Shown piece by piece: positions 18,894 to 64,000 of a stretch of DNA of 64,000 nt. The stretch is from the NCBI GenBank assembly GCA_016748015.1, contig JAAOMT010000303.1, positions 372,001 to 436,000 of the forward strand, in the 5' to 3' direction. Within the stretch, counting starts at the first letter, position 1. Each line of letters opens with the position of its first letter. A program made the position numbers and the translations under genes. Under the pieces are notes generated by a model that had not been told where the DNA came from, made no database searches, and was given only the letters and a program-made list of their open reading frames with translations. Origin of the DNA: Geosiphon pyriformis uo1. Lineage: Eukaryota > Fungi > Glomeromycota.

Positions 18894-18940
18894 AAAACAC
18901 AAAAACCAACACTCAAACCAACCAAAAGAGCCAACAAACA

Positions 18941-24545: not shown

Positions 24546-25265
24546 CTAAATAATATCTTTAATTTCATCTGGTAACATAACCTCCTCCTCAAGACTGAGC
24601 TTTGTCGAAGTCCAAGTACTGTCTGTAATTTCCAGATAGTAATCCAAAATTATTGAAAAAATTTGGTCTGAAAATTGTTGAAATTTCAGTTCTGTGAGCT
24701 TTTCAATGTATTGAATCTTCAAAGGTCATAAAATTGGGTTTTGTAGGACATTTTCACAGATGTGGAATAGGTCATAAAGTTTAAGAGCAGCTTTGAGCTT
24801 GTAGTAACTGTTTGTTGGTCCAGCTGTTGTCTTGAATTTGTTGTGGAATTGTTTCTGAATAACTTTTTTTGTGAGATTTGCTGTTGTAAGTTCCAGTTTC
24901 CATTTGTAGAGTGTTTTTCCAATGTAGAAATATCTATAGATTGGAGGATATTCAGTGTTTTCCTCATTGAGACACAGTTGAAGTCTTTGTTGAATTGTAG
25001 TATTTGGTGGAATACTAATTGGAGTGAGCATTAGGTTTTCTTTTAAAGCAAGCTTTAAAAGTTCTGGCAGGTGAACTCCAAAATAACTTCTTGTGTTCTT
25101 TTTATATGGGTGATATTTTTGTGAATTTGGGGCTAAATTTGTAACTACTTCTGTTTGAATATAATTAATGTGGTTTCCAGTAACAGTAATAGATAATTTG
25201 GGTATTGTTTTTAAAGCTAACATTAGTTTTTAGAATAATTGTTGAATGTTTTGAGGAATAGTTAT
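24546..25265 (-). pseudogene. A2 ORF3
   Basis: ORF 24726-25223 MLALKTIPKLSIT..., same frame continuing into the LTR. Confidence 0.85.
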
Positions 25266-33453: not shown

Positions 33454-35113
33454 ATGGCCTATAGCTTTGATCGAAACTGTCAGGAAGATTCTCTTCAAGA
33501 TTCTTTCTGATAGAATTTCTTCTGCATGCAGCAAGTTTTGTGTTTTACAGGATGACAACTTTTTCATCTTAAAGGATATGTCTATCCAATCTCTTGTGTT
33601 TGCAGTTGGTTTGGTTGTCAAAGATGCTCTTAAGAAAAATCGTGAACTTTGGTTGGTTCTCCAAGACATGCACAAGGCCTATGATTTTGTGAGTTGGCAT
33701 CACTTGGAGGCTAGCTTGCGTTGAATCAAAATGTGTGATAGGTTCATTGGATTTTTTGGCAGCATACATGGTAATAGGATTAATAGAGTTATGACCAATT
33801 TCGGTTTTACTGATGGATGCAGAATGTGTGACGGATTGGATTAAGATGAGGTCTTTTCGCCTCTACTTTGGAAGATCTTCTACAATTCTCTTCTGTGCAA
33901 AGTCAAGAGACATAAACATTTATGTGGTTATTGAATTGACACTAAGTTGGTTGCAAGAACTGGTAGAATTGAGACTAGTGGTGAGTTATCTTCTTTCTTT
34001 GCTGCTGGTGTATTTGTGGATGATACAATTTGAGTTAGCAATTGTCAAACATTGATGCAATATACTCTGAATATTGCTAGTGAATTTTTTGTGATTAATG
34101 ACATTTCTATTAACAATGAAAAAACTGGCCATTTCCATTAATCAGGGTGTTAAGTCAGCTTTTTTGAACATAAGTGGTCAGCCAATTTCAATAGTCAGAA
34201 AGAGTGAAGCTCATAGATACTTGGGTATTTTTTTGTCTACCAAAGGGTTGTTTAAGCCAAGTGTGGCCAAAGCTCATTCTGATGTGCGCTTTTTTGTCAA
34301 TGTGGTACTAAAGAAGGCTATTACCAACAAGCAGTTCTCTTATTTGGTTTCAGCCGTTCTGCAGCCCATTGTTAGCTACAGGATTCAGTTTAGTTTTGTT
34401 TCATTGGGAGTTTGCCACAAATGGGATGCTATGATTTGAAAGGGTCTTAAGTCTAAGACACACTTGCCATGTGATTTTCCAGTAGAAGCAGTACATTACC
34501 CTTTATTATATGGCTTGAAGTTGTTTGAACAATTGCAGTCAGAGTGTAAATCAGTTGCCATGGTTTCATTTGCTAATGCTTCTGGCATTCTTGGACATTT
34601 GTTCAATTATAGATTTTTGGATTTGCAGATTCTGGGTTGGACTCTGATGAACCCTTTGCAGTTCCCTGTTAAGTTGTGTATCAGTTCTGTGAACAATTTT
34701 TTGGCTGGCATGGTCAAGATTTTTTTGGGTAATAAGCTGTCTTTAGCTAACAATTTGCTGAATGCTTTCCGCAGTCCTGGTGTGTTTTTTGTATCTTTTG
34801 TGTTGGGAAATAATCTTTACTTCAGTTCAGTTTGTTCATTGAAATGTTTTGGTGTTGCTTTTGGTAATAGACTGTTGGATAAAAATGGTTGGGTGATGGA
34901 GTGGAAGACCTTCCATCATTGGAAGAGGCTGGATCCGAAGGGCCCTGTCTTTTTATGGTTTGTGACTGTTACGAAATTTTTGTTGAATATGGACTCTTCG
35001 TTGGTTGTTTCTGTTGGGGCCAATCTTCTATCTGAGACAGATGTTCTGAATTCATTGGAGTTCTCTAATATACGGAGTGGGTTGCACAAAATTTGGTCTA
35101 GTTTGTTTGATGT
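33454..35113 (+). pseudogene. LINE ORF2 part 3: reverse transcriptase core and downstream region
   Basis: (R)PIALIETVRKI, LQDMHKAYD, FVDD at 34013-34024, RYLGI. Confidence 0.92.
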
Positions 35114-36172
35114 TGTTATCAGTAGAATTTTAGCTATTAATTAGCATGAAATTACTCTTATAATTCCTATAATTAATCAGTATATTAATATCATTTCAAA
35201 TTATCATTTATTATTTAATCAATTATCACATATCACGATTCAATTAAAATAATCTAATTAGTATAACAGAAAGTAAGATGATTAAATTACACAATACTCT
35301 GAACTTTGTAACATTCAAAAATTTGCCAAAATTTACAGAAATTTGCCAAAATTTATAAGAAATTCGCCAAAATTTACAGAAATTCGCCGAAATTATGAAT
35401 AGTTCACCCAAATTAATCAATAGTTCAGTGAAATAACTTGTAGTTCATCAAAATGTATCTTTAGTTTGCTGAAATTTGAGCAAAGAGAAAAAGTGCAAGT
35501 TCATAGACTAGTACTACAACAAGTTGTATAAAAAAAGAGCTTTTCTCTTCTGGAAAATGTATCTTACTTTAGATTTATCACTTAGAACCATTCTTACACA
35601 CACAAAAAGAAATAAATATCAAATAATTCGAAAAACCAAATTCTTTAATTATTGCACTTAAAAAATTCTCAAAACCCAACTAACGTTTTGAAATTGATTA
35701 GCTACCAATTTCAGTAAACTGTTAGTGACTCCAGGCCTGGATAGAAAACATTTCCCTTGATAAAATCTTATTTCTTTTACATTTCTTTTATTTTTATCTT
35801 TTCTTTTCTTATTATAATTATTAAGGTAGCCTACAAATAAGATTTTTGTAAAAGAGTTGACTTTCACAGCAAAGTAACTACACATTTTTAGTGAGCTTCT
35901 AAACGAGCAATTCCTGGGAAAGAGTTGATGTTTACTACAACATAACTACATAAAGTAACTGGCAAGGAATTGGCCATTCCACTTATAAGCCCAGCAGTTC
36001 AAATTATAGGAGATAATTTGAAGATAAATTCAGTTATTGGAAGTTCAACTACTTTTAGAAAACATGAATTTGCAACCAACAAACAGTTACAACATTTAAG
36101 AAAAGAGACCAAAAACCTCCGGTAACATTTGGTGCTTTCTCACAGAAATAACACAGCAACAACAAATTCAAA

Positions 36173-39100
36173 GTAGCAATCACACCAGACACAGCAACTC
36201 TAGAGTATTACCAGTCAATTTACACTTACTGCAAGCAAAGATTCAACATTCCAGACGGAATTGAAGTTGTCAAGAAATCAGTATATTAATACATTGAAAA
36301 CCACATCAACAATTATCTTTTTGGAAACTACAACATCTCAGAAGTTAGAAGCAACCTCTACAATAATTTAGTGCACTATTCACAATTGAAAACAGAAGAC
36401 CTGAATAGTGAAACACTTGCTACCTACTTTCAAGAACTTAATTTTAACATTATTGAGTATTGTGAAGAAAAATACCCAGTACAGTCTAAATACTCTTTTG
36501 ACTTTGAATCAGAGACAGAAACAAGCAACAAAGGCAAACAAAAATTGAAGCAATATTCAAGAACCACTCCAAACACTCCAACACTACAAAAGACATCTGC
36601 CAAACACTTGCAAACACCTAAACAAGGAACTAGTGTCAAATTACCACTTTCTATTACACTCTTTCCAATTTCACTTGTTCAACCACAAACACCAAATTTA
36701 CCACTCAACTGCTTCTCCAGACCAGAAGATTTTCAGTCACCTAGAAACCCTACTCAACAGCAGAAACCAATATCAACAAATGCCAATATCATTGATTACT
36801 TACAGGAAAACGAAAGTAATCATTCAAAAAGCTTGAAAAGTGAAGGAACTGAATCAGAACCAGAAGAAATTACAGAAAATGAAGAAGAAATGGCAACTGC
36901 TTACATTGCAAAAATCCCAGAATTCACTGGTGAAGACAATGATACCAGTCCTCAAGAATGGCTTGACAAGGTTCAAAAAGCAGGAGATGCAAATGGTTGG
37001 ATTGCAGCAAGAATGCTCAAAACAATTCCCTACTTTCTCCAAGGAACAGCAGAAGAATGGTTTGAAAACTTAGAAAAACCATTTGAAAACTGGTAAGCAT
37101 TCAAAGATGCTTTTCTACAACAATTCACTGATAACAATACCTTTATCACTTTCAGAAACTGCTTTTGCAATATCAAACAAGAAACATCTAAAACTGTTAT
37201 GACCTATCTTGGAAGATTTAACAAACTTCTCAGACAAATCCAACAATTGGAAACCAATGACTACTATTCTGATGCTCAAATTCTGGATCAGTTTATAGCA
37301 GGATTAAAAGACAAACTGATTAAGAAAATCTGTCCACATGCTCCAGCAGACTTAGCAACTGCTATTAGACATGCAAAAAGCTATAAAATGGCAATGGAAA
37401 AAGCAAATCACACCAAGCTTGTAAACCTTGCAATTGGAGAAACCAGCTCAGCAGCTGAAGAGAAAATAGACCAATTCACAAAAAAAGTTGAAAGCTACTT
37501 CACAAACCAACAACAACAGCAACAACAACCACAAAGATATCAACCCCCACAACGACACAACCAAAACAATTTTGGATCACCATCCAACAACCAATCTCAA
37601 AATTGTTATTATTGTGGAATTCCAGGACATTGGAAACGAGATTGTAGGAAATTACAAAAAGACCAACAAAACAGGAGTAATCAATATTACTCTTCACCAC
37701 AACAATCTTATTACCAATTTTCACCACCAACCTATTATTCACCAAGACCACAAAATCAAAACTACTATCCACCAGCTCCACAATCAATGCAGCAACAATA
37801 TCAGCAACCTTTACCAATTCAGCCATATCAGACACCACCCACTCAACAATATCAAGTACCAGCAAGAAAATTGGTTCAACATAACCAATTCATACCCCAA
37901 AATCAATTGCAGAATAACCACAACAGAATCAATCCAAATAACTAGTTGGTTCTCCGAAATTCGGATCAGCAAAGACCCAATCACTATCACACTCAACCCA
38001 GTTATCTTACAATACCAAAGGAATTGGATTTTCAACAAACTGCACTTTCTGAAGGTAAAGTTGCAACACCAAGATCAAACCCTTCCAACCACACCATTCC
38101 ACCAGCTCAAATTGCCCAAAATGCCAATTTTTCAGACATATTTCCATTTGAATTTGAAGCAAATGAATCACTATTTCTGCTTAGTAATACAGCAGTCAAT
38201 GAACAGAAAGTAATTACTGCTATGTATACAAAAGCTACAGTAGAAGAAAAACCCATTCGCTTAATCTTAGATAGTGGATTGGCTGGAAGTATCATCACTT
38301 ACCAGCTAATGCAACAACTCAAACAAAATGTAGACAGACCAGCTCAAACAGTTATTGTCATAGCTGATGGTATAAAGAAAACTCCAGTAGGAGAAATTGA
38401 TGATTTCCCTTTTTCAATTGATAAAATCACCATTCCAGTTAAAGTTCTTGTTATGGATGCACCCCAATACCAAGCTCTAGTCAGAAATGATTGGCTTCTC
38501 AAGGCCAATGCAAACCTAAACTGGGAAACTCAAGAACTTAAAATCTTATACCAAGGACAATATACTATAGTACCTGCAATCTGTAGTACCTTTAACAAAC
38601 AATCAGAAAAAGCTCCAGTATTTGAATTTGAAGAGGAGAAAAAAATGCCACTTACTGAAACCTACATGGCTCTTGGATTAACATCCAATTGGACTGAAGA
38701 AACAGAACAAAAGATTTTTGAAGAATCAAGGGGATGGAAGAAAGTTAGATATTCTACACCAGAACCACGGAAACAACCACCCTATATTCCACTCAAATGC
38801 AAAGATTGCAACAAAAAACTTTCATCAATGGGAGCATGTATTTCTCCAGAAGAGGAATATGAAACTCGTACCTGTTACTTTTGCAAAGCATGCCATAGAG
38901 AACGATTTGAATCTCCAAAAAAAAGTGGAAAATGGGACAACACACCTTGTCTTACATGTGGAGAAATGCTACCAGAAGAATGCAATTGGATTGATGTAGC
39001 AATGAAAGGAGGAGTATGTGATCAAACCTGTCAATATGCTCTATCAATTTCGGAAAAAGTCAGAAGAGGAACACCATTTGATGCAGTATACAACAGTGCT

Positions 39101-41794
39101 CTCAATAAACTTTACCACTACTCTCATGATGCTGAAATGATTTTTGACTTAGCAATGGCATTGATCAATGGAGCCACTGAAGAAGATGTTCACCAAATGA
39201 AAGAAGCTGAATATATTGAGTATATCATAGAATTAGCTGGATTTGATTATGAAGATGAAGTAGAAACCTACCACCAAATTGCAAGCCACACATATCCGAC
39301 CAAAGAAGCTCAAATTCAATGATTAGAGCAAATAAACATTCAATTGTGTGAAGAATGTGTCATGCCTTGTGATGACCAATGGTGTTTAGAATGTTATGCT
39401 CTTAGCATTCCTCTGCCAGATGGGAATGATGAAAATAAAATCGAATTTGGAGTATCTGAACTAGTAGAAAAACTACCAACCACTCCCATTTATCTTCTTG
39501 AAAAGCAACCATTTCTACAACTTAAATATTTTGACAACCATGGCCAAGGAATCAGACCAGAAAAAGCACACGAAATTGATGCTGAATATAACCTAAGATA
39601 CCCAGGAAAAAATACTTTGATTCTCCAACCAAAGTCTTTGACAAAAATCAATCTAAAAATTGCTCTTGAAATTTCACCAGGAACAATGGTTCAAATTGCC
39701 TCCAGATTATCATTGGCAAGCAAAGAAATCAATATTAGAGGAGGAGTTATAGATGCAGGATACACTGAAGACATTACCATCATGTTACAGAATGAGACAA
39801 ACAAACCATTCAAAATTGAACATGCTGAAAAAATTGCTCAAGCAATTTACTTACCCTTAATCAACATTTCGGGTTTACAATCAATAAACAACAGAGAACA
39901 ATTGGGAAAAAGTGAAAGAGGAACTCAAGGTTTTGGTTCAATTGGACAATTTACAGTTCCAGTAAACATAGCTCTTAATACACAAAATAAATTTCACCAG
40001 ATTCTTTAACTTCCTCAACCAATTACCATTTCACCTTTTGGAGAACATCACGAAATTTACACTTGTTCAAAACCCACTACTACTCAACAAATCTTTGAAT
40101 CCAATGAACAAATTTGTTTGAAGCATAAAATATCAATTCCAAACGTTTATATTCCCAAAGGAATGAAAAAATTTTGAGTTATATTCTACAACCCCAATAA
40201 TTACCCTATTGTCTTATTAAACAAATTAGAAATTGGAATCATATACAGCAATATCTTTCAAGATGAAAACCCTCAAATTGTCTCTAATTTCATCGAAATT
40301 GTAAAGCACACTTTACTCCCAAATTCAAATATCATTCTCACTACTGAAAACTACCACTTGTTGGAAAAAAAACTCTCTCAAATCAATATGGGTCCCTTAG
40401 AATCTCAACAACAAAGACAATTGAAACAATTGATAGCTGAATTTGCAGATATATTTGCAAAAGACAACAATGACTTGGGAAAAACAAACATTGTTCAACA
40501 TCAGATCCATACAGGAGATGCTCTATCAAAACGTCAACAAGCCTATTGAGTGCCACCTGCCAGCCACCAATTCATCAGAGAAGAGATCCAAAGAATGCTC
40601 AATAATGGATTGATTCAACCATTAAGAAGTTTTTGGGCCTTACTAGTAGTTTTAGTTAAAAAGAAAAACGGAAAAATCAGAATCTGTGTTGATTATAGAC
40701 AACTGAATAGTGTTACAATTGGAGATGCCTACCCTCTTCCAAGAATTAATGACATGCTAGATGCTCTAGGAAAAACCAAGTTCTTCTCAACTTTAGACTT
40801 AGAAAGTGGATATTGGTAAGTCGAAATAAACCCAAAAGACCGATCCAAAACAGCATTCACCACTCAAGAAAGAAACTATGAATTCAATATTATGCTTTTT
40901 GGACTCTACAATGCACTAGCAACATTCCAATGACTCATGGATGTTGTATATAAAAGACTCTTATGGCAATCAGTAGTTGTTTATCTTTATAACACTGATG
41001 TATACTTACCAAGCTTTGAAGCCCATCTTATTCATCTGTGAGAAGTTTTTCAATGACTACGGAAAGCAGAATTAAAGTTAAATATTGAGAAATGTTACTT
41101 TGGAAAAACAAGCTTAATCTTTCTTGGACACATGGTTAGCAAAGATGGAGTCAAACCAAACCCTGGAACAATTAGTGCTGTCAAAAACTTCCAAACCCCA
41201 AAAAATACCACAGAGCTACAAGAATTTGTAGAATTAGCCTCTTATTATCGAAAATTCATTAAAAGATTCTCAGAAATTGCCAAACCACTCAATTATCTCA
41301 CCAATAAAAATGTGCCATACAAATGGACTGAAGAACAACAAAAAGCATTTGAAATCCTCAAAACAAAGCTGACAACAGCCCCAGTTCTTGCTTATCCAAA
41401 CTTCAACAAACGATTTCAACTAGCCACTGATGTTTTACACATAGCATTTGGTGCTATCTTATCACAAATAGATGAAAAGGGGCAAGAACAAGTCATTGCT
41501 TATGCTAGTAGAACACTCAAACCAACAGAACTAAAATACGGCTCAACTGAATTAAAAGCTGCTGCAGTTATTTGGGCTCTTAAACATTTTTAACAATATC
41601 TGAAGAATGGAAAAGAATTTGACATAATAACAGACAACATTGGCCTCAAATGGCTCAATAAAAAGAAAACTGAACAAAGTGCCAAACAGTCTCGATGGAA
41701 TGACTTCCTAGCAGACTACAGATATATTGTACATCACAAACCAGGAAAACTACATACCAATGTTAATAGCCTCTCAAGAATGAAACAAAATTAA
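36173..41794 (+). pseudogene. A3 Gag-PR-Cys-rich-dUTPase-RT-RNase H
   Basis: CYYCGIPGHWKRDC, LILDSG, GVIDAGYT, RGTQGFGSIG, RT (YLDD decayed to YLYN), RNase H ending LSRMKQN-TAA. Confidence 0.93.
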
Positions 41795-41851
41795 TACCAA
41801 CAACAATTCCACCACAACTTACCAACTTACCAACAAAATAACCAAACAAGA

Positions 41852-43076
41852 ATGAATCCCAGAAATTACAGCAATCTTAAAAATTATTTAGAGACTCTTA
41901 TCATGCCAGAAAACTGGTTTCCAAGTGAAAAACACCACTTACAACACCAATTAAAACAATATTTTATACACTAGAACAAAATCTATTATAAAAATTACAG
42001 AAAACCAAACCAGCCACTCAGATTAGTACAAGAGAATGAAAAAAAAACAATTTTATACAACATGCACACAGATCCGTCTTTAGCACACTTGGGAGAAGAG
42101 AGAACAATTCAAAGAACCCTTGAATATTATTTTTGGCCTCACTGCAAAAAAACATTTGACAATATGTAGAATCTTGTAATAGCTGTCAAAGAAGAGGAGG
42201 AACTTGCCCCACAGAACCTTTAAATCCAATCAAAATTGGACAATCTTTTGACAGAGTTGGAATTGATTTAGTCAGACCATTACCTATTACAACCCAAGGA
42301 AATCATTATATTGCAGTTGCAGTGGATTATCTTACCAAATGGCCTGAAGTTAGAGCCATCCAAAGAGCAGATGCAAAATCAGTAGCAAATTTCATCTATG
42401 AAGACATTATCTGTAGACATGGATGCCCAATTGAACTCTTATCTGATCAAGGAACACATTTTGTGAACAACTTGATACAAGAAATTTGTAAACAGTTCAA
42501 TGTCAAAAGACCTCTATTATCACCTTATTACTCTCAAACAAATAGACTTGTAGAATGTTTCAACAGAACATTGTGTGAATCTCTAGCCAAAGTCTCAACA
42601 GACTTTGAGCAGGAATANNNNNNNNNNNNNNNNNNNNNNNNNNNNNNNNNNNTAGTACACAAAAAAAAAAAAAAAGAATAGCAGCAACTCATATTGAACA
42701 TTCCCAAGCTCAACAAAAAGAAAGACATAACAACAAATTACCACCTATTACCAACAAATTTAAAGTTGGAAATAAAGTTTTCTTACACAGAACTAAGGCT
42801 GAAAAACAATGGAGTGGGAAATTTGAAAACAAATGGGATGGACCATTTTATATTCACGAAATTCTAGGCAATGGATCATATAAGTTAAGACTTGATGACA
42901 AAATATTAGCAAAAGTTGCACATAGAGACAGATTGAAACACTATCATTCCAGAAACAATCTTGAACCATTAATTTCACAAATTGGTACACATTCCCCTTT
43001 AATTAATTCTGAAGATATTCCCCGAAATTTAGAACCAATAATTATAATAGAACAACAACCAAACTTGAACACTTAA
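41852..43076 (+). pseudogene. A3 integrase ORF (contains N gap)
   Basis: ATG at 41852, SDQGTHF, WDGPF. Confidence 0.9.
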
Positions 43077-43260
43077 ATTTTAGAATAATTCTCTAATAAA
43101 AACACAAAGACAAAAATAGTAAATAATTACAAAACACCCAAACCCAAAAACAAATAAAAACCCCATATCCAAAAATAATTTTCTTTATTCTCTCTTTTCA
43201 TAATTAGTCAATTTTATCATGATTATTCTCTGAAACATTCAACAAATATCCCAAAAATTA

Positions 43261-43926
43261 ATGTTAGCCTTGAAAACACTCTCTGACTTATCTATAACGA
43301 TTAATAGAAGTCAAATTAATTACATTCAGAAAGAAATCACAGCCCCAGTAGCAAATCATTTACAGAATTATCACCCCTATAGAAGAAAAACAAGAAGTCA
43401 CTTTGAGAATAGATTACCAAAACTTTTGAAGCAAGCACTAGAAGAAAATCTTTTAATTGCTCCTATTGACATTCCACCAAATGCTACAATGCAACAAAAA
43501 CTTTTATTACTTCTCAATAAACAGAACAATGAACACATCCCTATCTATAAATACTTTCACATTGGAAAAACACTTTATGAACGAAAACTGGAACTTGAAG
43601 CAACAAATCTCACTCCTGAAGCTATACAAAAACAAATCTACAATAAATTCAAAACAGCAGCTGGACCAATAAACACTCACTACAAACTTAGAGCAGCTCT
43701 TAGACTCTATAACTTGTTTAATATTTGTGAAAATGTTCTACAAAATCCAATACTGCAACCAATAAAAGTCCAATATATTGGCAAACTCACAGAACTGAAA
43801 TTTCAACAATTTTCAGACCAGATTACTTCAATTATTTTAGATCACTATCTCAATATTACAGATAGTGCTTGGACTTTGACGGAGCTCAGTTTTGAGAAGA
43901 AGATTATGTTACCAGTAAAATTTTAG
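43261..43926 (+). CDS. A3 ORF3, open 221-aa copy of the unknown accessory protein (likely true start 43219)
   Basis: Uninterrupted ORF conserved with A1 and A2. Overlaps the PPT and 3' LTR start. No obvious signal peptide or transmembrane segment. Confidence 0.75.
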   Translation: MLALKTLSDLSITINRSQINYIQKEITAPVANHLQNYHPYRRKTRSHFENRLPKLLKQALEENLLIAPIDIPPNATMQQKLLLLLNKQNNEHIPIYKYFHIGKTLYERKLELEATNLTPEAIQKQIYNKFKTAAGPINTHYKLRAALRLYNLFNICENVLQNPILQPIKVQYIGKLTELKFQQFSDQITSIILDHYLNITDSAWTLTELSFEKKIMLPVKF

Positions 43927-44899
43927 CTATTAATTAGCATGAAATTACTCTTATAATTCCTATAATTAATCAGTATATTAATATCATTTCAAATTATCAT
44001 TTATTATTTAATCAATTATCACATATCACGATTCAATTAAAATAATCTAATTAGTATAACAGAAAGTAGGATGATCAAATTACACAATACTCTGAACTTT
44101 GTAACATTCAAAAATTCGCCGAAATTTACAGAAATTTGCCAAAATTTACAGAAATTCGCCGAAATTATGAATAGTTCACCCAAATTAATCAATAGTTCAG
44201 CGAAATAACTTGTAGTTCATCAAAATGTATCTTTAGTTTGCCGAAATTTGAGCAAAGAGAAAAAGTGCAAGTTCATAGACTAGTACTACAACAAGTTGTA
44301 TAAAAGAAGAGCTTTTCTCTTCTGAAAAATGTATCTTACTTTAGATTTATTACTTAGAACCATTCTTACACACACAAAAAGAAATAAATATCAAATAATT
44401 CGAAAAACCAAATTCTTTAATTATTGCACTTGGAAAATCCTCAAAACCCAATTAACGTTTTGAAATTGATTAGCTACCAATTTCAGTAAACTGTTAGTGA
44501 CTCCAGGCCTGGATAGAAAACATTTCCCTTGATAAAATCCTATTTCTTTTACATTTCTTTTATTTTTTTCTTTTCTTTTCTTATTACAATTATTAAGGTA
44601 GCCTACAGATGAGATTTCTGTAGAAGAGTTGACTTTCACAGCAAAGTAACTACACATTTTTAGTGAGCTTCCAGACGAGCAATTCCTGGAAAAGAGTTGA
44701 TGTTTACTACAACATAACTACATAAAGTAACTGGCAAGGAATTGGCCATTCCACTTATAAGCCCAGCAGTTCAAATTATAAAAGATAATTTGAAAATAAA
44801 TTCAGTTATTGGAAGTTCAACTACTTCTAGAAAACATGAATTTGCAACCAACAAACAGTTACAACATTTAAGAAAAGAGACCAAAAACCTCTGATAACA

Positions 44900-46188
44900 A
44901 TGTCTACATGGATGGCTTGTTAAAAAATGCTGGAACTGCTGATGTTACTGGCGGTGCAGCTGCATATTTTTCTTCAATGAATCTGAATGTTGGTGTTAGG
45001 GTTTATGGTTTATTGTCTTCCACTCTATCTGAATTGCAGGCAGTTGCTTTGGCATTGGAGTGTGTCACATCCTCTTGTACTGTAGTATTGTATCTTGACA
45101 GCCAGGCTGCCATTGATGTGTGTGTATCTAAAATATCTCTGGCAGTGTCTGACTTTTGTGTTCCATGCTGGATAGAAAGACGTTACATTTTTAATTTCGT
45201 TAGAGATAAAGATCTTGCCATAAGTTGGATAAAGGTCAAAGACCATTCTGAGATTGTAGGTAATGTGAAGGTGAATGCTGCTGCTGGTTATACTACATGT
45301 TTTAAATTTTTTTTGCCTGTTGGAGTGCATGAATGTTTTTTGGTGGCAAAAAATACAGTCATGTCTGGCAATGCCCACCATTTTGTTAGAGATGTGTTTC
45401 AGTCTATTTGTTGTGCTTGTTGAAAGGCTGGTCCTGGCCAGGATGTTGTTCCAAGTAATCTGGTTGGGTGTGTGGACTGGAATGTTATGGCTAAGGTATG
45501 GCATCCTGATTCCCATATGCTTGCTGGTTTTACTAGTCGGAAATTTTCTGGTTTGTGTACATATTTGATGAAAGCTGTGCACCAATGGCTGCCTGTTGTA
45601 ATTAGAAAAAAATTGTATAATAGGAAGTACTCTGGCATATTGTGTTTATTGTGTAGTGAGGTGAAGGTGCCTAATTATGTTTTTACGTGTGTATTGGATG
45701 CTGGAGTTCGAAAAAAGATTTTGGCTAAAGCCTTTGCATCTTGGATTTCTTTGTTGGGTGTTGTCAGCATGGCTTCTTTTGCTGTTTTGTGGGATCTTGG
45801 TTGATGCTCTTTGGATGTTAGTTTGTATTCAGTTTTATGCAAGAAGTTTGTGCTTAAAAACTGGTATAAGGAAGCTGTCAATGTTTTTGACAGGAAAGAG
45901 GAGGCTTTCCACATGATTGTTGGGTTTGTTCGGTGGTTTGCTGAGTTGTATTGCTTTAAAATTTGGCTGGTAAGATGTAAACATAGAGTGGAAATGGAAA
46001 GAACAGGCTTGGTGGGTGATGGTGGAGTAGTGTCAGGTTTGTCACATTGTGTTGGGTCTTTGCTGTCAAAGGGGGTAGTTAGAATGCTTGGTGTTATTGA
46101 GTCTTTTGCAGTTAATTTTGGCCAGCAGTGGTTGTGTTTTATTTTCACCAGTTTAGATTGTAACTCTTGTGTTGTTTTAGGTGTATAG
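44900..46188 (+). pseudogene. LINE ORF2 part 4: RNase H and C-terminal zinc finger
   Basis: DVYMDGLL (VYTDGS), ELQAVALAL, LDSQAAI, WIKVKDHSEIVGN, CLLC; stop at 46188. Confidence 0.92.
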
Positions 46189-46321
46189 TGTTGTTTTGTC
46201 TGGCTTGAGTGGCTAGCCACATGTGGAAAATGTGTGAGTTGTATCTAGTTTTAATCACTTAGTCTGATTTTGTATACTAGATAGCAGTTGGGACTTCACT
46301 CATTAAAAGCTAAAATAAAAT
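46189..46321 (+). other. LINE 3' UTR with palindromes, ATTAAA and A-rich tail
   Basis: GTGGCTAGCCAC palindrome at 46209-46220 and a TATCTAGT...ACTAGATA stem. Homologous to the tails at about 5480-5600, 6508-6630, 7340-7465, 51960-52050 and 53510-53630. Confidence 0.8.
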
Positions 46322-46869
46322 AAAAATTATCTTAATTATTAAAAAACAAATTACTATAATTAATAACAATAGTATATATATTATTATTAAATCAAAAAAA
46401 TTACCAAAAAAAAATGATAATAATATATGTTTAAATATATAATAGTAATTAAAAAAATAATTATTTATAAACAAAAACTTGTTATATAAATAACAACTAA
46501 AATTTTATAATTAATTTAATAAAATTATAAAAAATATAAAGTTTTTAAAAAAACAACTTAAATAATACAAATAAAAATTTTAAATATTATATGATTAGAT
46601 ATCTTTAAAGTTTTAATTATTATAAAAAGAACCAAAACTTTTATATAAAGTTTTAATTTTTAAATACAAAACTTATTTTATTTTAAATATTAAATATTTT
46701 ATTAACAAAAAATTTCATTAAACTAATTAGTTTTAGGTTAAACAAGATTTTTTAATTAAAATATTTCATAAATAATTTAATTTTATTAAAGTTAAATTAA
46801 TTTTAAAAAAGTATATTATAGTTAAAAATTATAGTTTTATTAAATATTATATATATTAAATAAATAATA

Positions 46870-49500
46870 TTATAAAACTTTTTCTTTTTTTTAATTTTAT
46901 AATCATAATTAAAGCAAAAGTAAAAAAATTTTAAACATTGTTTTTTTTATAATAATTAATAAAGTTTTAATATGAAAATATTTTTTTGTTATCAAAACAA
47001 CTAAGCAAAATGCTTTAGTAATATTTTTTTAAATATGAATAGTAAAAATTGTTTTTGACAACTTTTAAAGCATTTTTTTTATTTTTAACTAATAATTTTT
47101 TCTTAATTAAAGTTTTTTCTAAAAAATACATTTAGATCAATTCTAGTATTGTTTTTATTTTTTCTAAAAACCCAAAAGTTTTTAATAATAAGCCAGTTAA
47201 TAAGCTGGTTTTTTTTATTTTTACTATTATTATTACTTTTTTACAAATAATTAAAAAAGTTAAAAACTTAAATAATAATAATAGTTACTTGTATTTGTTA
47301 TTATTATACTGAACTTTTTTGTGATTTTAGATGAGATCTTAAAAAATTTTTTTAATAATATTTAGCTCTTTTTTTAATATAAGTAATAATAATAACAGCA
47401 AATTTTTTAAAATAAGCCAAAATTAATTATTAATTGTATTGTTAAATATAATGTTTTTTAGCAAATTATTATTGGTTTTTAAAGCAAAACAATTTATTAG
47501 ATTATTTAATTTTAAGAATTGAATTGATTAAATAGAAACAAAATCAATTTTTTTTGGTTTTTTAGTACTATTAATAATAGTATTTTCAAACCAATTTTTA
47601 ATTATCAAAGATTTTTTGAATAAATAATCTTTACTTTAATATCTAATATTATATTCAAAATTAAATTGGCTTTAATTATTTTTTTGTTGGATATAAGTTA
47701 ATTTTAAAAGATAATATTAAGCTATTTTATATAAATTTTGTTTTTAAATCTTTCTTAATTGCTATTATTAAAGTTTTTATTAATGGTTTTTTTTCTTAAT
47801 TACACTTAAAATTGCAAAATTTTTTGTAGTAATTTCTGGTTTTTTTTTCATCTTTGTTATACTTTATAATATATTTTTTAATATATTGTTATAGTTAAAA
47901 CTCATATTTTTTATTAGTTATCACATGTATTAACTACTGATATCATATAATTAGCCAACTTATTTTTAGATAGTAATTATTGACCTGATTAATAACTTAA
48001 CTATTAACTTAATTATTGACCTAATTATTAATCTGGTTATTAACCACTTTTAATAATTATATAAGTAATAAGTCTCTTTGCTATAGAAAAATATAATCAA
48101 AGTAACAAAATAAAATCCACTATTAAATACTTTTTTTATATTAATTATTCTTTTTTCCTTACCTTTAAGTATCTGAACATTTTGGAATAAAAGATTACTT
48201 GTTAGCATTCACATATTTTATCTTTTCTTTTTTTTGATTTGTATTATTAGAATTAGTCTGAAAAGCAATTGTTTGTTTTTGTAATTTATTAAATAAAAAA
48301 ACAATTAAAAAGCACAATAATATCTGTTATTAATTCTAAAAATTGCTGAGTTAAGACATAGAATAATAGCAACAGTATTATTTTGTTAATAATTACAAAC
48401 TATTTCTTTACCTTCAGATTTCCAAAAAAAATTTACAACTGTGATTTTTATGAGACTAATCATGCATATTGAATCCTTACTTATTTAATTTGCTCCTATA
48501 TTGTAATTCTTTTTTTGATTATTTTTATCATCTTACAATTTTGTTTTTTTTTGCTATTTGTTAGCTTGTTATTTTAATCTGTAACAATATTTTCTAATAA
48601 TATTAAGAATATTTTTGATATTTTTAGTGTTGTTATTTTAATTAAATTAAAATTTATTGAGTTGTAATAATATGTTATTATTAATTTTATAAATTTTTTG
48701 TCTGTTGTTACTGTTTTTATAATTGGTTTGTGTTAATTAAAAAAACAGTATTAGAATTTTTCTTCTATTTAATCAAAAAAAATTATTATTTTAAGAAACA
48801 ATTTTAAAATTAAATTAATTTTTTTTTTTGGTTGTATTGTTTTTAAAATTAGTACTATAATTTCTCAGGTTGGTAATTATACTTGCTTTATTTTCTGTTT
48901 TTCTGATTTTTATTATTATTAATTTTTTATTGTTATAATATTTAAATTTTATAAATTTATAAATTTTGTTATTATAAAAACTAATACTTTATATAAGTAT
49001 TATATTTAATAAAAAACTTTTAAATATTGTTATTGCTATAGATATTAAAAATTTAAACATTTGTCTGTTAATTATAAAATAATAATAATATTTTTTTTCA
49101 AATTGTTTATTAAGTTTTCTATTGGCTTCAAGTTTTTTGTGTTTTTTTTATTAATAAAAAATTTTATATTAAAACTTCTGTTTTTTTAGCTTTATTTTTT
49201 GTTGTTTCTTTAACTGTATTTATTGTTGATTTTGTTATTAAATTTAGATTAAATTTCTTGAATTCTCAAATCTTAAGTTTGATTGTTTTAATTAAATTTG
49301 TTATTAAACTTATTGGTTTTTTTGTTATTTTAGTTACTACTTTTTTAAATATTTTTTTTGTTTTGTATATAAAAATTAAAGATTTAGTTTTCAATATTTA
49401 AAATAAAATATCTGTTTTTAATAAAACTATAGATTAATTTTTTTTAATTATAGCAATAATTAAAACTAAGTGTGGTTTTAATAATATATATAAATAAGTA
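46870..49500 (+). mobile_element. ORF1-only (HAL1-like) element, copy 3, strongly eroded, with solo LTR insertion
   Basis: 46905-47700 aligns by eye with 2644-3440; 48590-49490 aligns with 4500-5400. Confidence 0.7.
47887..48586 (+). mobile_element. Solo LTR of Gypsy family B
   Basis: TGTTATAG...GTAACA, TSD ATAT (47883-47886, 48587-48590), 12-bp TATTGACCT-type repeats. Homologous to 55368-56113. Confidence 0.88.
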
Positions 49501-49779
49501 TAATATTAGTTTATTTAAATTTTATATCAAATTAATTATTCTTTGAGAATATTAATCTAATAATATTAAATCTAACTTAAATATAACTATAAAATAGCTA
49601 AATAACTTGATTAAAAATAGTAGTATATTGGTTGTTATTATAAATAAAATATCTTTTCAAAATAGATTTTTTTTTAAATTTAATGTAATTTAACTTAAAT
49701 TAGACTTATGTTTAAATATATGTAAAATAATTTATAAATTATATTTAATTTAAATTATTTAGTTTAATATATTGTATTA

Positions 49780-49990
49780 AATATAGTTAAATTATAATTA
49801 TTAATTTAATTAATAATTTAGTTATTAATCTAATTATTAATCTAATTGTTAATTTAATTATTAATTTTTTTAATAATTATATAATAATAAATTTTTTAAT
49901 TATAAAAAATATAAAATAAAAAACATTATTATAAATAATTTTTAAATTTATTTAAGTTTTTATAACTTAATATTTAGTTTAATAATTTTT
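49780..49990 (+). repeat. Eroded fragment of a family B LTR
   Basis: Degenerate 12-bp array (TATTAATCTAAT) followed by TTTTAATAATTATATAA...TATAAAAA, as in family B LTRs. Confidence 0.5.
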
Positions 49991-51959
49991 TAATTTGAAG
50001 ATTTTTTTAAAGATTTTAATATTAAGTTTTTTATATAATAAACAAAAATTTAATATTTATAAAAGATAATTAATATTTAACTTTTTAGTATAATAATTAG
50101 TTTATTTTAGTGCTTTTTACTTTTTTAATAAGCAATCCTAACTTTTAATTATATTTTATACTTTTTTTTAATGTTTTTTATTAAATAATCTTTAATATTA
50201 TAATTTCAGTATTTTTAATTAATTAATTAATAAACATAAAATAAAACAAAAAAAGAAAATAAAAAATTAATATTTTGTTAATAATTATAGTTAATTTATT
50301 ATTTTAGTATTGTTAATAAAATTGTATTAATATTAATAATATTAATAAAAAAATAAATAAATTTTAACAAAATAAGTATATATTTATAAATTTAAAGTTT
50401 AAATAATATAAACAATAAATTTATTTTAAAGAAATATAAACTTTAAGTATTAAATAACTAATTATAAAAACTACTTAATAAAATATAATTAAGCTTGTTT
50501 TTAATTTAATTTGTCTTTTTTTCTGTTTTTAATACTTTTGCTATATATATATAAATATTTATAATACAAAATTTTTATAATTTTTATAATTTTTTTGAGT
50601 TATTATTAGAATTTTAATATTCTTGAAAATTTTAATATCATATGTTTTAATAATTTCTATTATATTATTAGATATCTAAATTATTTTTTGTTTTTTATTT
50701 TTTATTTTATTTTATTTTATAATAATAATATATTTTTTTTTAATATTAATTTTAATAAAATTTTTTAAATTTTTTTTTGATAAATTTAGGTATTATAATA
50801 TTAAAAATTTTTGTTTTTAGTTTTATAAATTATGAATTAGTTATTTTTTTTAGTTAATTTGTTATTAATATTTTTATAATTAAATATATTAGTATTTTAT
50901 TATATTTATTAAATATTATATATAGTTAATATATTTTTTTTAAATGAGTTATTAAATTGTTTTTTTCAATAAAATGGTTTATTTATTATATTATTTTTTT
51001 GTCAAATACTTTCTTGAATCTGTTATTATATAAAGTTTAAATATTTAGTTATTGTCTTAAATAATAATAATAATAATAATCTATTAAAAATTGTTTTTTT
51101 TTGTTTTTTTAGTTATTTTTTATTGGCTTTCTGAATTAAACAACTATTAATAAATTTTTGAAAGTTTTTTTACTTTTTTAATAATTTTTTTACATAATTG
51201 TCTGATTATATTTATGATTTATTATTTTATATTGTTTTTTTTAAGTGCTTTTATAGCAAATTTTTTAGTTGTTAATTGTTATTTTTATGTTCAATTTTTT
51301 ATTTTTTAATATTTAAAATAATTATTAAGCAATTAAGTAAATATTGTTTGTAATTTCTATTTTATTGGGCTGTTTTGTCATATTTTAAAAGTATTTATAT
51401 ACTTTTTTTAATTTTGTAATATATTAGTTTTAATAATAATAATTGGTTTTAAATCTTATATAATTTTATTTAATTTAATTAGTATTTTTGATGCTTTAAT
51501 TATAATATATTAAATATTAATAATATTTTGATATAATATAATTTTAGTCAATTATTATGTATTATTTGGTCAAAATTTTGTTTTTTTATCATAATTTATA
51601 TGTTTTATTTCTAAGTATTTTTTAATATAAAATAATTTATTTTATTTTAAATTAAAATTTTTATTTTATTGTTTTTTATTTTAGTATAATATAATAGTAT
51701 TTTGTTTCTAATTTTAAAATTTAGCTAATTTGTTTAATAATTAACTATCATGTTTTTTTTTATAATGTTTTAATATTATTAGCTGCTTTTTTTTTGTTTT
51801 TTAATATTTTTATTAAGTTATATGTTTATTTTAATAATATTTCTTAAAATATGATTTTTGTTATTGGTTTTTTTAAATATGTTGTTAATTTTTTCTATTA
51901 ATAATATTGCTGTTTTATTATTATTATTATATACAAGTAATGTCTAATTACTATTTAAT

Positions 51960-53400
51960 ATAATACAACTATCTAAAGTTCTAAATTAAATATAATTTAT
52001 ATGCTTGCTATATGTAACCAGTCACTTAGCCAATCAATATAACATTATACAACTATGTTAATTAAAACTTTCCTAATTGTATTTACAAAAAACAAATAGC
52101 TAATTTTTGATCTAAAACTAACAGTATAACTTTTCTCAATTTTTAACAAATAAGCAATTCTATTTAAAACCCTAACAAAAAAACTACAAACACTATTAAA
52201 CATAAAGTTATTCTTATTTAACAAGTTTTTATAATTTATTTTTGCTCAAAGCTTTAAATTAAGTATCTATATTTACTTTTTATGACCAATAACTAAACCC
52301 TAAAAAATTCAATCACTCTAAACACAACAAGCTTAATATTTCTAAAAAAAAGTTTTAACTTCTATTAACCAATTCTCAAACACAAATTCTTTGTACAAAA
52401 CTATATACAAATTAATATCAAAAATACATATAGCTAATAATTAAAAAACTACAAATAAAACCAAATTTGTACTAGTTAAAGACTTTTAAATAGCAAAATA
52501 TTTATTAACAAATTTTAACAAACAAAAAAATTCAAGTTGCAAACAAAACTATAATTTAAAAACTCCATTTTATCATAATATATATACAATATACTTAAGT
52601 AATTGTAATTATATAGGTGCTTTCTAACTATTAATAGCAATCTTCTATGTAGAGCTTTTATTAGATATATATACAAACCAGCAATGGCTTTGCTTGTGTA
52701 TTCAGCAGCCATATAAGAATTAAGATGCCAAATTAAAGCAGTATGCTTTCAACTAATATTATTAATTTACAAAAAATTTACAATATTAAAACCTGGTCTA
52801 ATTTTCATTAAAAATATCTTATAGTATTATTTATAGTTCTAATAAAATAATAAATATTGTCAAACACTATCTTACTATTGGCTATTAAAAATTTTTTCTT
52901 AATATTTACTAGAAAAACAAATCTCAAAAAGATAGTTTAATCTGCCAATCTATTAGTATACTTATTATTTAATACATTCAAATAATCTTTTATCTTGGCC
53001 CAATTTACAAAAATGTTTTTATCTTAAACCAAATTACTAACATAATAGCACTCTATTCAACACTTATTACAAAAGTTAAATGCTATTAATTTTAACTTAG
53101 CTTAATATACATTCAAAAAAACCTAATTGTTAGAATAAATTGTGATTTTAAATAAAACCAAAACACATTTTAACCAGAGTCAAAGACAACAATTTATGAA
53201 TCTCTACATCTGTATACAAACTCAGATCAAAAAAGTAGACAGCCATATTACCAATAGCACCAATAGAACCAAAGTTTTTAATTAAACTATCAGTATAAAT
53301 TAATGTCTTAAGCAAAAATACATCTCTTAAATTAGAATAAATAATACTGAAGTCATATATATTAGTTATATTCATCTTGAAAAAGTGTTTAAAAGCAGAT
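51960..53400 (-). mobile_element. 5'-truncated eroded LINE (RNase H, ZnF, 3' UTR)
   Basis: IYTDSLIKNFG...LLSLTL (53148-53375) and YLIKALHRRLL..RKHLYN (52515-52712). Confidence 0.85.
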
Positions 53401-53499
53401 AAAAAATATTAAACCAGATCACTATTTTTGACAAAACTTGAAACTTATGTAAACTAAAAAAAACCAGACTTTTTTTATTATATATATATATATTTTTTT

Positions 53500-54386
53500 A
53501 TTAAGTTTAATAAGTATGATCCAATCACTACTTAGTATTTTAAAACAAATTAAGTGTTTTAAACTAAGTATAATTTACATACTTTCTATATGTAATCAGC
53601 TATTTAAGCCAGTTTAGACTATGTTATATTGCTATAATGAAAGTAAACTTACTTAAAGCCAACATTTTTTGAATTATATCAAATAATAAAAAATTAATCC
53701 AACCAGTTATTTAGTTGTTTTTAAGGAATCAGTTTTAATACTATTAGACTCATATGTTTAAAAAAACATCAAATTAGAAAACATATTATTATTAATGCCA
53801 ATTAAAGGATCTGAATTATCAAACATGTCAACATTATCTATACAGTACTTTTTTTTAGTGAAACCACTTTTTTTTCCAACTTATTAACAACTTTGCTAAA
53901 AAAAACTCAGATGAATCATAAATTCATTAATTTTAAGGCTAAAAACACTACTTAATACCAAATTACCATTAATAAATTATTTAAATATAGTAAACAAAAA
54001 GCTAACAAACTTAACAATTAATTCAACCAATACAGAAAGTTTGGTCAGATCAGATTCCAAGAAGACAACCAAGACAGCACCAAAGGGTCACTAATAACAA
54101 CAGAAAAAAAGGCAAAAGTTGTCAAAAATGGAAACTTAAAGAAGTTTAAAAGAGCAGAAGCTTTGGCATAAAACTTAAAGCTTACAAAATGTGGTATAAA
54201 CATCTTGGAAGTTTTGAAAGCCTTAAGAGAGGAAGATAAAAACACTTTACAATTTACAGTTAGATGACCTACTTCTTAATACTTAAAACAGTGCCAACAG
54301 TCAAAAATTTCTTACCAAATGTAGCACTTTTTTAGCATACCAATTTTGCTTATAGCAGTATCTAAATCTACTTAAAATCCAAACAT
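53500..54386 (-). mobile_element. 3' half of ORF1-only (HAL1-like) element, copy 4
   Basis: Reverse complement of 4850-5470 plus 6350-6620. Cut at ACAT by a TGTTACAG LTR-like terminus at 54387. Confidence 0.78.
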
Positions 54387-55451
54387 TGTTACAGATAATT
54401 ATTTAGAGTATTAAAACAAATAACAAACTCATAACTTGGTGCTTAATAGCTATTAATATTGGTAATTTTTGAAGATTTTGGAATTTAAAAGTTTTGGTTA
54501 AGCTTTTTATATAATAAACAGAGATTTAATTAATGATTTCTTTTGTAAATTTTTTTTTCAGCATAGTAGCTAGTTTATTCTGGCAGTCATATCCTTTTAA
54601 TATACTATTTTTAAGTTTTCTACCCTTGTTTCTGAGTCTTTTACCAGGCTATTTTTGATGTTAAATATTTAGTATTATTATTAGTAAAATTTTAACTATT
54701 AACTAGCATGAAATTACTCTTATAATTTTTATCATTAATTAACATATATTAATATCATTTTAAATTATTACTTATTATTTAATTAAATTATTGAATATTA
54801 TCATTTAATTAATAATTTGATTTATATAATAGAAAGTAAAATAATCAAATTATACAATATTCTAAACTATGTAACATTCAAGAATTTGCTAAAATTTGTA
54901 AAAATTTACTGAAATAGTTAATAGTTTATCAAAATAATTTGTAGTTTCTTAAAATATATTTTTAGTTTGTCGAAATTATAGCAAAGAAAAAAGTTCAAAT
55001 TTATAGACTAGTATTATAACAAGTTGTATAAAAAAAGAGTTTTTCTCTTTGAAGAAATATATTTTATTCTATCTTATTTAAAATCATTTTAATTTACATT
55101 AATTAGTCTTTCAAAAAGTAATAAAAACATCAAATACTTAAAAACCAAATTTCTTAACTATTTATACTTGAAATTCTTTTAAAAACCAACTAATATTTTG
55201 AAATTAATTAGCTACCAATTTCAGTAATTTATTAATGATTTCAGGTCTGAACAGAAAATGATTTCTTTAATAAAATTTTATTTTTTTTATATTTTTTTTA
55301 TATTTTTTATATTTTTTTATTATAAGAAATAATTTGAAGATAAATTCAGTTATTAGAAATTTAATAGTATTATAGTTGAAATCCATACTTTTTATTATTA
55401 CATATATTAGCCACTGATATTATATAATTAGCCACCTTATTTTTAGATAGT

Positions 55452-58500: not shown

Positions 58501-60442
58501 ATTGGACAACTTCTTTAATATTTAAGCAAAACCAAAAAAAAAAACAATTAAATGAATCAGATAATAAAGAAAATAAAATAAAATAAAATAAAATAAAAAA
58601 AAACAAGAAGAAACTGTTGAATTTGTTTACACTATCTTTACCAGCAATAACAAGCCACTAAACAATATTAAAGCTAACAAAAAAAGAATTATTGTAAATA
58701 GCAAGTTAATCTGTTGATTATATAATAATATACTCAAAAGAATCTTTAACAGAAAATCTAGCAAAAAAGCTAAATATAGTTATTGGTGGCATAATCTTTG
58801 TGCCTTGTATTGGTGTAATAAGCTATTGTATTCTTCCAATAATAAATGCAAATTCTGTCTAATATATTACAAAAATTAGGAACCTATTAACTTGATACCA
58901 AAAGAAAAAATACAAGAAGTACAAAAGTTTTTTGAAAATAAACTACCAGAGATACAATCATTAAAAATAGAGCAAAAAGAACTCTCTCCAAAAAAAAAAA
59001 AGATAAACATTGAAAATCTGTTAGTTAGAAACAGCCCAGTTATCTCAAAAGAAGATAATATCTCTAGACATATTCATATAATACAATATACTATTACCAC
59101 CAAAGAAACTCATTCTATCTACCTAAAGTTTTATCAATTCAATTGCCACAATAGTGAGTTTATCAAAAAAAAATAAACTGAATGAAAAATCTTGGATTTA
59201 TACAAGAAACCAAAAGTAAATAGGCTTTTTTAATAGTAGTGATATTCAAAAAAAAAGAAATCTTATGCTTTTGTGTTGATTATTACCAATTAAATATTAT
59301 TATTAAAAGAAACATGTACTTATTTTTCAAAATTAATGCAATATTAAACAAATTCAATAGTGCTGTTTTTTTCTTAATTATTAACTTAATTGCTAAATTT
59401 TGGCAAGTAAAAATAGATCCAAAAAGCAGAAAGAAAACTGTTTTTATCACCAAATATGGTACTTATAAATTTACAGTTATGTTTTTTGGTCTCACTAATG
59501 TTCCTTTCACTTTTCAATGCTTAATAGACAAAGTATTTGAATCAGTAAAAGAAAACTTTGTTCTAGTCTATTTGGATAACATAATGGTATACTCAAAAAC
59601 TTGGAATAAATATTTAAAATATCTACAAAAGATTTTTGATTTCTTTAAAAATGCTGGCCTCAAAATCAACCCAATCAAATCTTTTTTTGGACATCAATTC
59701 ACCCAGTTTTTTGGTTATTTTATTACAAAATATGAAATTTTCTTTGATCTAGCTAAAGTTAAAAAAGTCCAGAATATTAAACAATCAATAAATGTTTATA
59801 AACTATGCTTTTTTCTTGGATTGGTTTTCTATTATTACAAATTCATCAAAAATTTCTTCAAAATTATCTTTTTTTTTAATTAGCTACTCAAAAAAACTAT
59901 TAATTATTATTGGAATATACATTAACAAAAAACATTTGAAACTTTGAAAAAAAAATTGGTTACAAAACCTATTCTCATGTAATTTAATCTAAATCAACTT
60001 TTTATTCTTTATACTAAAACATCTGGCTATGAATTTGGTGTTGTTTCCTTACAGAAAATAAAAATAACAAAGAACATACTATAGTATATACAAGTAAAAC
60101 ACTCTTACCAGTAGAACAGAACTATTTAGTTACTAAGCAAAAATGTTTAGTAGTAGTTTGGGCTATTAATTACTAGAATAAATAGCTTCTTAATGTGAAA
60201 TTCCTAGTAATAACAGATCATTAAGTCTTGGTTTGGTTACACAACAAAAAAAAGCTAGAACACAAAAAAATAACTTACTGAATACTTTACTTAGATAAAT
60301 TCAACTATAATATTCAATATTGTAAAAGAACAAATTATTAAAATGTCAATGCTTTTTTCAGACTTATCATTTAGTAATAATACAATTTTTACAAACCAAA
60401 CCAATCTAATTATTAGTAACTCTCCCTTAACCAAACACAATA

Positions 60443-61730
60443 ATAAACTTGAATAACTACTCTGTACTAATAAAATTTTTGAGTAAAAAACAATACTTAT
60501 TAGACTACAATTAATAACAAAAAGAATATTTGCATAAATAATCAAATTTTTATTTGATTTACCAGAACCAGTTATATAAAAGAAATAGAAAAAATTCTGA
60601 CTGCTTCCAAAAAGTCATCAAATTTGAAGAAAGAAAAATTGTAATTTATAACATGCATATTAATCTATTAGCTGAACATTTTGAAAAAACAAAAACAATT
60701 TAAAAAACTTTAGCTTGCTATTATTGGCCTATTTTGAAAAAAAACATTGCTAAGTACATTAAAACTTGTAATATCTGCCAAAAAAAAGGAAAATCCAATT
60801 GCAAAAAAGATATCTATTTAATTTCTGTTGATTAATTATTTGACAGAATTGGTATAGATGTTGTTAGACTTTTAACAATAACTTCTAATGGCAACAAATA
60901 TATTATAACAGCTACTAACTATCTTATAAAGTAAGTAAAAACAAAAATTATTTCAGACCAAATAGCAGTTTCTATAACCAATTTTATTTATGATAATATT
61001 ATCTACTGTTATGGCTGCCCCAAAAAACTTTTATCTAATAGAAGAAGAGCTTTTTTTAGTATATTAATTGAAGAACTTTGTAAGAAAATGGGAATACATC
61101 ATAAATTCTCTTTTCCTTACCACTCTTAAACAAATAGTCTAGTAAAACATTTCAACAAAACACTATGTAAAACATTAACCAAAACCAGTAAAGAAACAAA
61201 TTTATGGAACAAAATGCTGCCTTCAGCCTTGTTTGCTTATAGGACTGTAAATTATAACATAATAAGTTATGAACTTTTTTATCTGCTTTATGGGTAAATA
61301 ACAACTTTACCAATAAAAACTGATATTAAGACAATACCATTTGAAAAAATCACAATAGAAAATTACAAAAACATTTTGTAAAAAAGATTTGGTATCATTT
61401 TTGACTCCTTAGTAGAAGCATAAATAATTGCCTTTAAAAAGATAAAACAGTTTTAAAAAAAGCTTAAGAAGAAAAAAACCTATAAAACACTTTCTTTAAG
61501 TGTTAATAACCTAGTTTTGGAATATTACTTAGACAAAAACAATGTTTATGATGATAAATTTTCTAGCCAGTAGAAAAAACTCTTTATAGTTAACAAAGTT
61601 TTGAACAATAATTTTTATATCTTATAAAATTAATATAAAACAATCTTCAATGATTGCTCTGTTTATGATATAAAACTTAAAAAATATGACAAATAATCTA
61701 ATTGGTTATCTGTTGTGGTAATATTGACCT
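60443..61730 (+). pseudogene. Family B integrase ORF
   Basis: (ATA)NLNNY..., MH.N.LAEHF...CNICQK, GIDVV, PYHS*TNSLVK. Confidence 0.8.
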
Positions 61731-63184: not shown

Positions 63185-64000
63185 CCATCCAAGAAAAAAT
63201 TATGAATTTAATGTAATGTTTTTTAAACTTTGCAATATACTAGCAATATTTTAATAACTAATAAATATTCTTTATAAAAAATTTTTATTGCAGTTAATAG
63301 TTGTATATTTTAATAACACTAATATTTACTTTCTAACTTTTAAAACTTATTTGGTCTACTTGCAAAAAGTATTTCAATAATTATAAAAAGCAAGATTAAA
63401 ATTAAATATTAAAAAATATTATTTTAAAAAAACAAGCTTAAGTTTTCTTGAACATATTGTTAAGAAAAATAAAGTTCTATCCAATTCAAAAACAATTAAT
63501 ATAGTGAAAAATTTCAAAGTTTTTTGAAATACCACTGAATTAAAAAAATTTACTAAATTAGTCTTCTACTATTAGAAATTTATTAAAAAATTCTCAAAAA
63601 TTGCCAAATTTTTTAACTATTTGATTAACAAAAATATAAAATTTTAATAAATTTTAACACAACAAAAAGCCTTTAATATTTTTAATGAAAAGTTAACAAC
63701 AGCTTTAATTTTTGTTTATTCAGACTTTAACAAACAGTTTTAATTAGTTACTAATGTTTTTCACATTATATTTGATGCTATTTTATTACAATTGAATAAC
63801 AACAGCAATAAGTGAGTTATTGTCTATGTTAATAAAACATTCAAATCTACAAAAACAAAATATGGATTTACTAAATTAGAAGCAATAACTGTTATCTAAA
63901 TCTTTAAACATTTTTAATAATACTTGTAAAAAAAACCAGAATTTAATATTGTTATAAATAATATTGGTTTTAAATAGCTTAACAAAAAAAATTTAAACTC
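63185..64000 (+). pseudogene. Old Gypsy RT-RNase H fragment (family A-like), runs off the window
   Basis: NYEFNVMFFKLCN, FLEHIV, YY*KFIKKFSKIAK, YSDFNKQF, colinear with 17965-18770. Confidence 0.85.

Follow-up and report, generated by a model that had tools for sequence, protein, structure and literature searches.

ORF3 of a Geosiphon pyriformis Ty3/gypsy lineage: an undescribed gene under purifying selection and a possible nuclear regulator of its own long terminal repeat

The window examined here, a 64,000-nucleotide stretch of the Geosiphon pyriformis contig JAAOMT010000303.1, holds three decayed copies (A1, A2 and A3) of one Ty3/gypsy lineage; A1 and A2 agree at about 92%, and A3 agrees with either of them at about 77%. 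The element is of Ty3/gypsy type, with TG...CA ends on its long terminal repeats (LTRs), a primer-binding site, a polypurine tract (PPT) and gag followed by protease (PR), reverse transcriptase (RT), RNase H (RH) and integrase (IN). In the Pfam search its domains follow the order gag, zinc knuckle, protease, dUTPase, RNase H, integrase and SH3-like integrase end, and the search found no chromodomain on the integrase beside the SH3-like end. Our subject is a third open reading frame (ORF3) situated between the integrase and the 3′ LTR of this dUTPase-bearing element. In A3 the target duplication is 4 bp (ATGT) and the gag-pol frame is dead, with 13 stops. The relevant features are as follows.

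35114–44899, plus strand: whole element A3 (LTR, gag, PR, dUTPase, RT, RH, IN, ORF3, LTR)
42160–43076, plus strand: integrase core and SH3-like C-terminus of A3, with a run of N inside at 42618–42652
43077–43218, plus strand: pol-ORF3 spacer of A3, without ATG, with a TATA-like word at −125 and AG at −135, −109, −99 and −11
43219–43926, plus strand: ORF3 of A3, 235 codons and a stop, ATG at 43219
43894–43903, plus strand: PPT, doubling as coding sequence for the ORF3 tail
43907–44899, plus strand: 3′ LTR of A3
12248–22104, plus strand: element A1, of a different subfamily from A3
20434–21153, plus strand: ORF3 of A1, ATA start, stops at codons 185 and 218
33453–23596, minus strand: element A2, of the A1 subfamily
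24546–25265, minus strand: ORF3 of A2, ATA start, stops at codons 12 and 180

Re-reading of the sequence bore out the preliminary description of the 235-residue frame, with its ATG at 43219, an in-frame TGA in A3 (codon 5, 43231–43233), ATA in place of ATG in A1 and A2, and all four of the protein motifs it had quoted. Its placement of the frame in the env slot, across the PPT and into the LTR, also held, since ORF3 ends 20 nt inside the 3′ LTR. All three copies in the window are broken. A second Met stands at codon 15 in A3 (43261), and among the 120 listed of 203 protein matches, 29 have an open frame from their first Met and 38 begin at the second; the long start is nevertheless taken to be the real one, because its 14 additional codons can be aligned with those of distant families.

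ORF3 is a real gene under purifying selection. When A3 was compared with the 192 codons identical in A1 and A2, dN was 0.166 and dS 0.873, giving a ratio of 0.19 (bootstrap range 0.11–0.31) that is well away from 1, the value that the preliminary description had named as telling against a function. Pairwise ratios of A3 with A1 and A2 were 0.22 and 0.24, and that of A1 with A2 was 0.85 (0.36–2.83), as expected from decay after insertion. For comparison, the ratio was 0.06 for the integrase core, 0.09 for RT, 0.16 for dUTPase and 0.05 for the gag core. The other five frames over ORF3 contain 13–22 stops each, with ratios of 0.53 and 2.07 (sense) and 0.48, 1.54 and 0.33 (antisense); the final 23 ORF3 codons are uninformative (0.74). 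The earlier claim that ORF3 was retained while the DNA upstream diverged stands only in part: substitution is equal in spacer and gene (22/94 versus 147/647, both 23%), and the contrast between them lies in the indels of the spacer and the codon pattern of ORF3, not in overall divergence.

The 120 listed matches are all Geosiphon pyriformis gene models at 58–90% identity, and a profile search over 1.84 billion representatives (E 0.001) gave 35 matches. Distant relatives comprise P0144 and P0152 (ENA) and P0146 (JGI/ENA), and Geosiphon itself contributes two more groups, P0147/P0148 and family B (P0149, P0150, P0159 onward). The family falls into six sequence groups about 25–30% identical to each other, and in its tree four clusters sit on long branches, with P0146 and P0147 each standing as a long single row. 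Relatives at 24–31% identity were found in other Gypsy families and in metagenome contigs of the same layout, and between families ORF3 is only 24–37% identical, versus 64–74% for integrase parts. In locus L001 the order is RH, IN, a 316-nt spacer, an intact ORF3 relative and a PPT/LTR junction nearly as in the window; in locus L002 the integrase end is followed by an additional 128-codon ORF and then the ORF3 relative. This additional ORF (425–811) lies behind a TATA-like box, and no Pfam match was found for it. In family B gene models, the integrase end is fused to the ORF3 relative.

ORF3 belongs to an undescribed family in a slot where extra ORFs are an already known kind. According to the available text of PMC2864245, PMC11728184 and PMC5408684, additional ORFs (aORF, ‘add. 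ORF’ or ORF3) of Ty3/gypsy elements in fungi, plants and bdelloid rotifers are likewise sense ORFs between pol and the 3′ LTR, with no function known; some plant products have predicted nuclear localization signals (NLSs), and one fungal element has been recorded with its dUTPase between PR and RT. ORF3 differs from them in overlapping the PPT and LTR end and in forming its own family; no sequence link to known aORFs was found in the Pfam search, which did not compare them one by one. Our literature search, in a collection lacking most subscription papers, found no published description of the family.

The protein features to be considered are these.

43369–43398, plus strand: basic linker YHPYRRKTRS, resembling a proline-tyrosine NLS (PY-NLS)
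43483–43848, plus strand: helical core, residues about 89–210, confident in the P0146 model
43663–43719, plus strand: G-x-T-N turn and basic third helix, a candidate recognition helix

The structure prediction called for in the preliminary description was obtained for the relative P0146, which is modelled confidently (predicted local distance difference test score, pLDDT, 81) as a small helical protein. No significant Pfam or fold match was found for ORF3, and among the matches listed in the Pfam, PDB and BFVD searches there was no fusion protein. Six of six intact relatives have 235–239 residues, 1–3 cysteines and no membrane segment (best 19-residue Kyte–Doolittle mean 0.81–1.33; no dedicated signal-peptide predictor was used). 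Hydropathy, the model and the selection result together uphold the view of a soluble, helical, non-Env protein.

The suggested PY-NLS-like segment is likewise confirmed, in that Pro-Tyr is the commonest pair at this site in 6/6 groups, within a basic linker of low model confidence (pLDDT <50 at residues 42–51 of P0146). The literal YHPYRRKTRS is limited to the A3 subfamily. The R/K/H-x2-5-PY motif, which forms the C-terminal part of the PY-NLS definition (PMC2408616), is present in all seven distant relatives printed and in 18/48 A3-type and 29/50 A1-type decayed copies. Linker net charge is +4 to +7 in four of four proteins; the basic run upstream of PY is clear in P0146, P0144 and family B and weak in the A3 type. 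In the turn and third helix, N145 and R155 (P0146 numbering) are kept in 6/6 groups, each of the 39 sequences counted gives the helix a net charge of +2 to +4, and the helix also carries family-specific residues.

Downstream of ORF3, the 3′ LTR contains two features of interest.

44115–44247, plus strand: U3 array of a near-palindromic TTCGCCGAAAT-type unit, a candidate ORF3 target
44299–44305, plus strand: TATA-like box, kept in 8/8 LTR rows

The TTCGCCGAAAT-type unit occurs in 3–6 copies per LTR, mostly about 20 bp apart, and has a palindromic core with one-base spacing. The U3 of A3 has an observed/expected CpG ratio of 1.1, internal DNA is depleted (0.15–0.28), and differences within LTR pairs are almost only transitions; CG methylation on transposable elements (TEs) has been described in Rhizophagus (available text of bioRxiv 2021.03.30.436303). 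In a single comparison, the U3 motifs of the window family and L001 were mutually absent from each other's LTRs. The U3 repeat motif thus changes between families, while ORF3 diverges much faster than integrase.

We therefore have to ask what such a protein might do, and our preferred reading, to which we give a probability of roughly 45%, is that ORF3 encodes a nuclear DNA-binding protein, specific to its family, that regulates the LTR of its own element. The soluble, helical product would enter the nucleus on a transportin-type carrier and would bind the repeat array in its own U3 by the turn and third helix, whereupon LTR transcription would be switched on, possibly by the acidic, hydrophobic ORF3 tail, or the LTR would be kept unsilenced. 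Weighing against this, host factors could equally bind U3 arrays.

ORF3 would be expressed either from a short RNA whose start lies in the pol-ORF3 spacer or from one spliced just behind the pol stop. The splice acceptor proposed near 43207 survives for A3, where the pyrimidine tract and AG are present, but not for A1, A2 or L001, where they are absent and the AG nearest the ORF3 start lies 74 nt (A1, A2) or 71 nt (L001) upstream. Each of the three window copies has an AG soon after the pol stop (−135 in A3, −93 in A1 and A2) and a spacer free of ATG, with which a spliced ORF3 RNA would be compatible. TATA-like words are found 84–126 nt before the ORF3 start in all four spacers, as a raw count of words that are common in A/T-rich DNA. 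The L001 spacer has several words in common with U3, for example T[CT]GCCCT, a motif chosen after inspection, with two copies in the spacer (1/2000 Markov shuffles reach two), four in the LTR part and none in L001 pol or ORF3. No word sharing between spacer and U3 was seen in the three copies of the window's own family.

On this reading the working mode would be akin to that of foamy-virus Tas or of VANC, without membership in either family. Tas (Bel-1), as far as the available text of PMC3798896 goes, is encoded by the last gene(s) before the 3′ LTR, as is ORF3, and binds response elements at the internal promoter and in U3. A comparable trait is the word common to spacer and U3 ahead of TATAAA in L001, which is missing in the window's own family; a Tas-type internal promoter and activation are candidate features only for ORF3. 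Tas differs in coming from an env-bearing retrovirus of vertebrates, and no homology was seen. The VANC proteins of VANDAL elements (PMC5735166, PMC13547354, in their available parts) are, like ORF3, TE-encoded and fast-evolving, and stand beside family-specific tandem motifs in the non-coding DNA of CpG-depleted elements. Their hosts, however, are plant Mutator-like DNA transposons, and VANC resembles MAIN; neither was among the matches listed in profile and fold searches with ORF3, and no direct comparison was made. The ORF3 core also shows a weak structural and profile resemblance, with all scores below significance, to the ParB/Spo0J/KorB-type DNA-binding domain and to DUF1016_N (YhcG N-terminal domain; PMC1189080, available text), which are all-helical and of similar size and come from prokaryotic proteins in other contexts.

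The PY-NLS-like motif would also suit an integration cofactor that delivers the pre-integration complex to the many nuclei of the hypha or anchors it at chromatin targets, in keeping with an integrase on which only an SH3-like end and no chromodomain was found, with 4/4 target duplications ending in GT on at least one side, and with three elements apparently nested in one LINE-like (long interspersed nuclear element) element. We consider this unlikely, since a protein that partners integrase could be expected to diverge in step with it, yet ORF3 is 24–31% identical where integrase is 64–74%. Target preference is, moreover, usually a property of the integrase.

Small size, helices, basic patches and fast divergence could instead mark an RNA-binding factor, which would either suppress RNA silencing or assist export or packaging by acting on a conserved R/U5 leader. 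The subfamilies differ at only 8% of sites (42/531) in R/U5 (44320–44899), a segment with a long pyrimidine tract and repeated hairpin units, against a dS of 0.87 in ORF3, and TEs are targeted by small RNAs in a related fungus (bioRxiv 2021.03.30.436303, available text). Such a role seems improbable, as the predicted folding of the U5 segment of A1 is no better than that of shuffled sequences (z −0.92), R/U5 has no Rfam family match, and a sequence-blind suppressor would leave the family-specific third-helix residues unexplained. An Env-like, movement or particle protein would fit the env position, and language-model features place two queries near a closterovirus coat-protein cluster (Atlas, 0.92–0.93, both weak and below the recognition mark); given the size, the few cysteines and the lack of a membrane segment in the intact relatives, we regard this as very improbable. 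A by-product frame without protein function, to which the broken window copies and the A1–A2 ratio might point, is refuted by the selection between subfamilies, by full-length relatives at 24–37% identity in the same position and by the 29 matches open from the first Met.

The remaining features of the window concern the lineage and its surroundings.

1954–977: solo LTR of the lineage
54675–55331: partial LTR of the lineage
50773–51360, minus strand: fourth ORF3 copy, distant and P0147-like, strongly A/T-shifted and heavily decayed (independent E-value, iE, 1e-18)

The fourth copy follows, at a distance of about 200 nt, a weak trace of an integrase C-terminus (51666–51562, iE 0.005). The 4-bp target duplications of A1, A2, A3 and the solo LTR are GTGT, CCGT/CCAT, ATGT and GTGT, from which a NNGT target preference of the lineage is possible. 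The flanks of A1, A2 and A3 (10140–12247, 22105–23595, 33454–35113 and 44900–46190) read as successive pieces of one plus-strand LINE-like element with an ORF1-like part, an endonuclease (E 0.01), RT-like motifs (by eye) and RNase H (E 4e-6), so that three Gypsy insertions appear nested in one host element. The primer-binding site (36130–36141 in A3, and the matching A1 and A2 sites) differs between subfamilies past the first eight bases, which suggests different tRNA primers. Two more distant Gypsy elements lie at 59164–61200 and 63190–63990, and no ORF3 relative was found behind the integrase of the former. Positions 46000–54400 are decayed repeats, extremely A/T-rich (GC 10–21%), in line with C-to-T and G-to-A decay over a long time.

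Ty3/gypsy elements commonly carry extra ORFs, hardly any of which has been assigned a function. ORF3 forms a coherent, well-modelled family whose natural variants pair different proteins with different U3 motifs, allowing a direct cross-family comparison of binding. LTRs make up 41.2% of the Geosiphon genome (PMC11952901, available text). In its fullest and more doubtful form, our reading would have a foamy-virus-like control circuit evolve independently in a fungal retrotransposon lineage, with an internal promoter, a helix-turn-helix-like DNA-binding protein of an undescribed family, a recognition helix co-evolving with a CpG-bearing U3 array, LTR activation or a methylation shield, and a contribution to the LTR expansion to about 41% of the genome. 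Should ORF3 indeed be a self-activator or anti-silencing factor, an LTR retrotransposon would gain a kind of circuit hitherto known only among complex retroviruses and plant DNA transposons, and this could help to account for the bursts of LTRs in Archaeosporales genomes.
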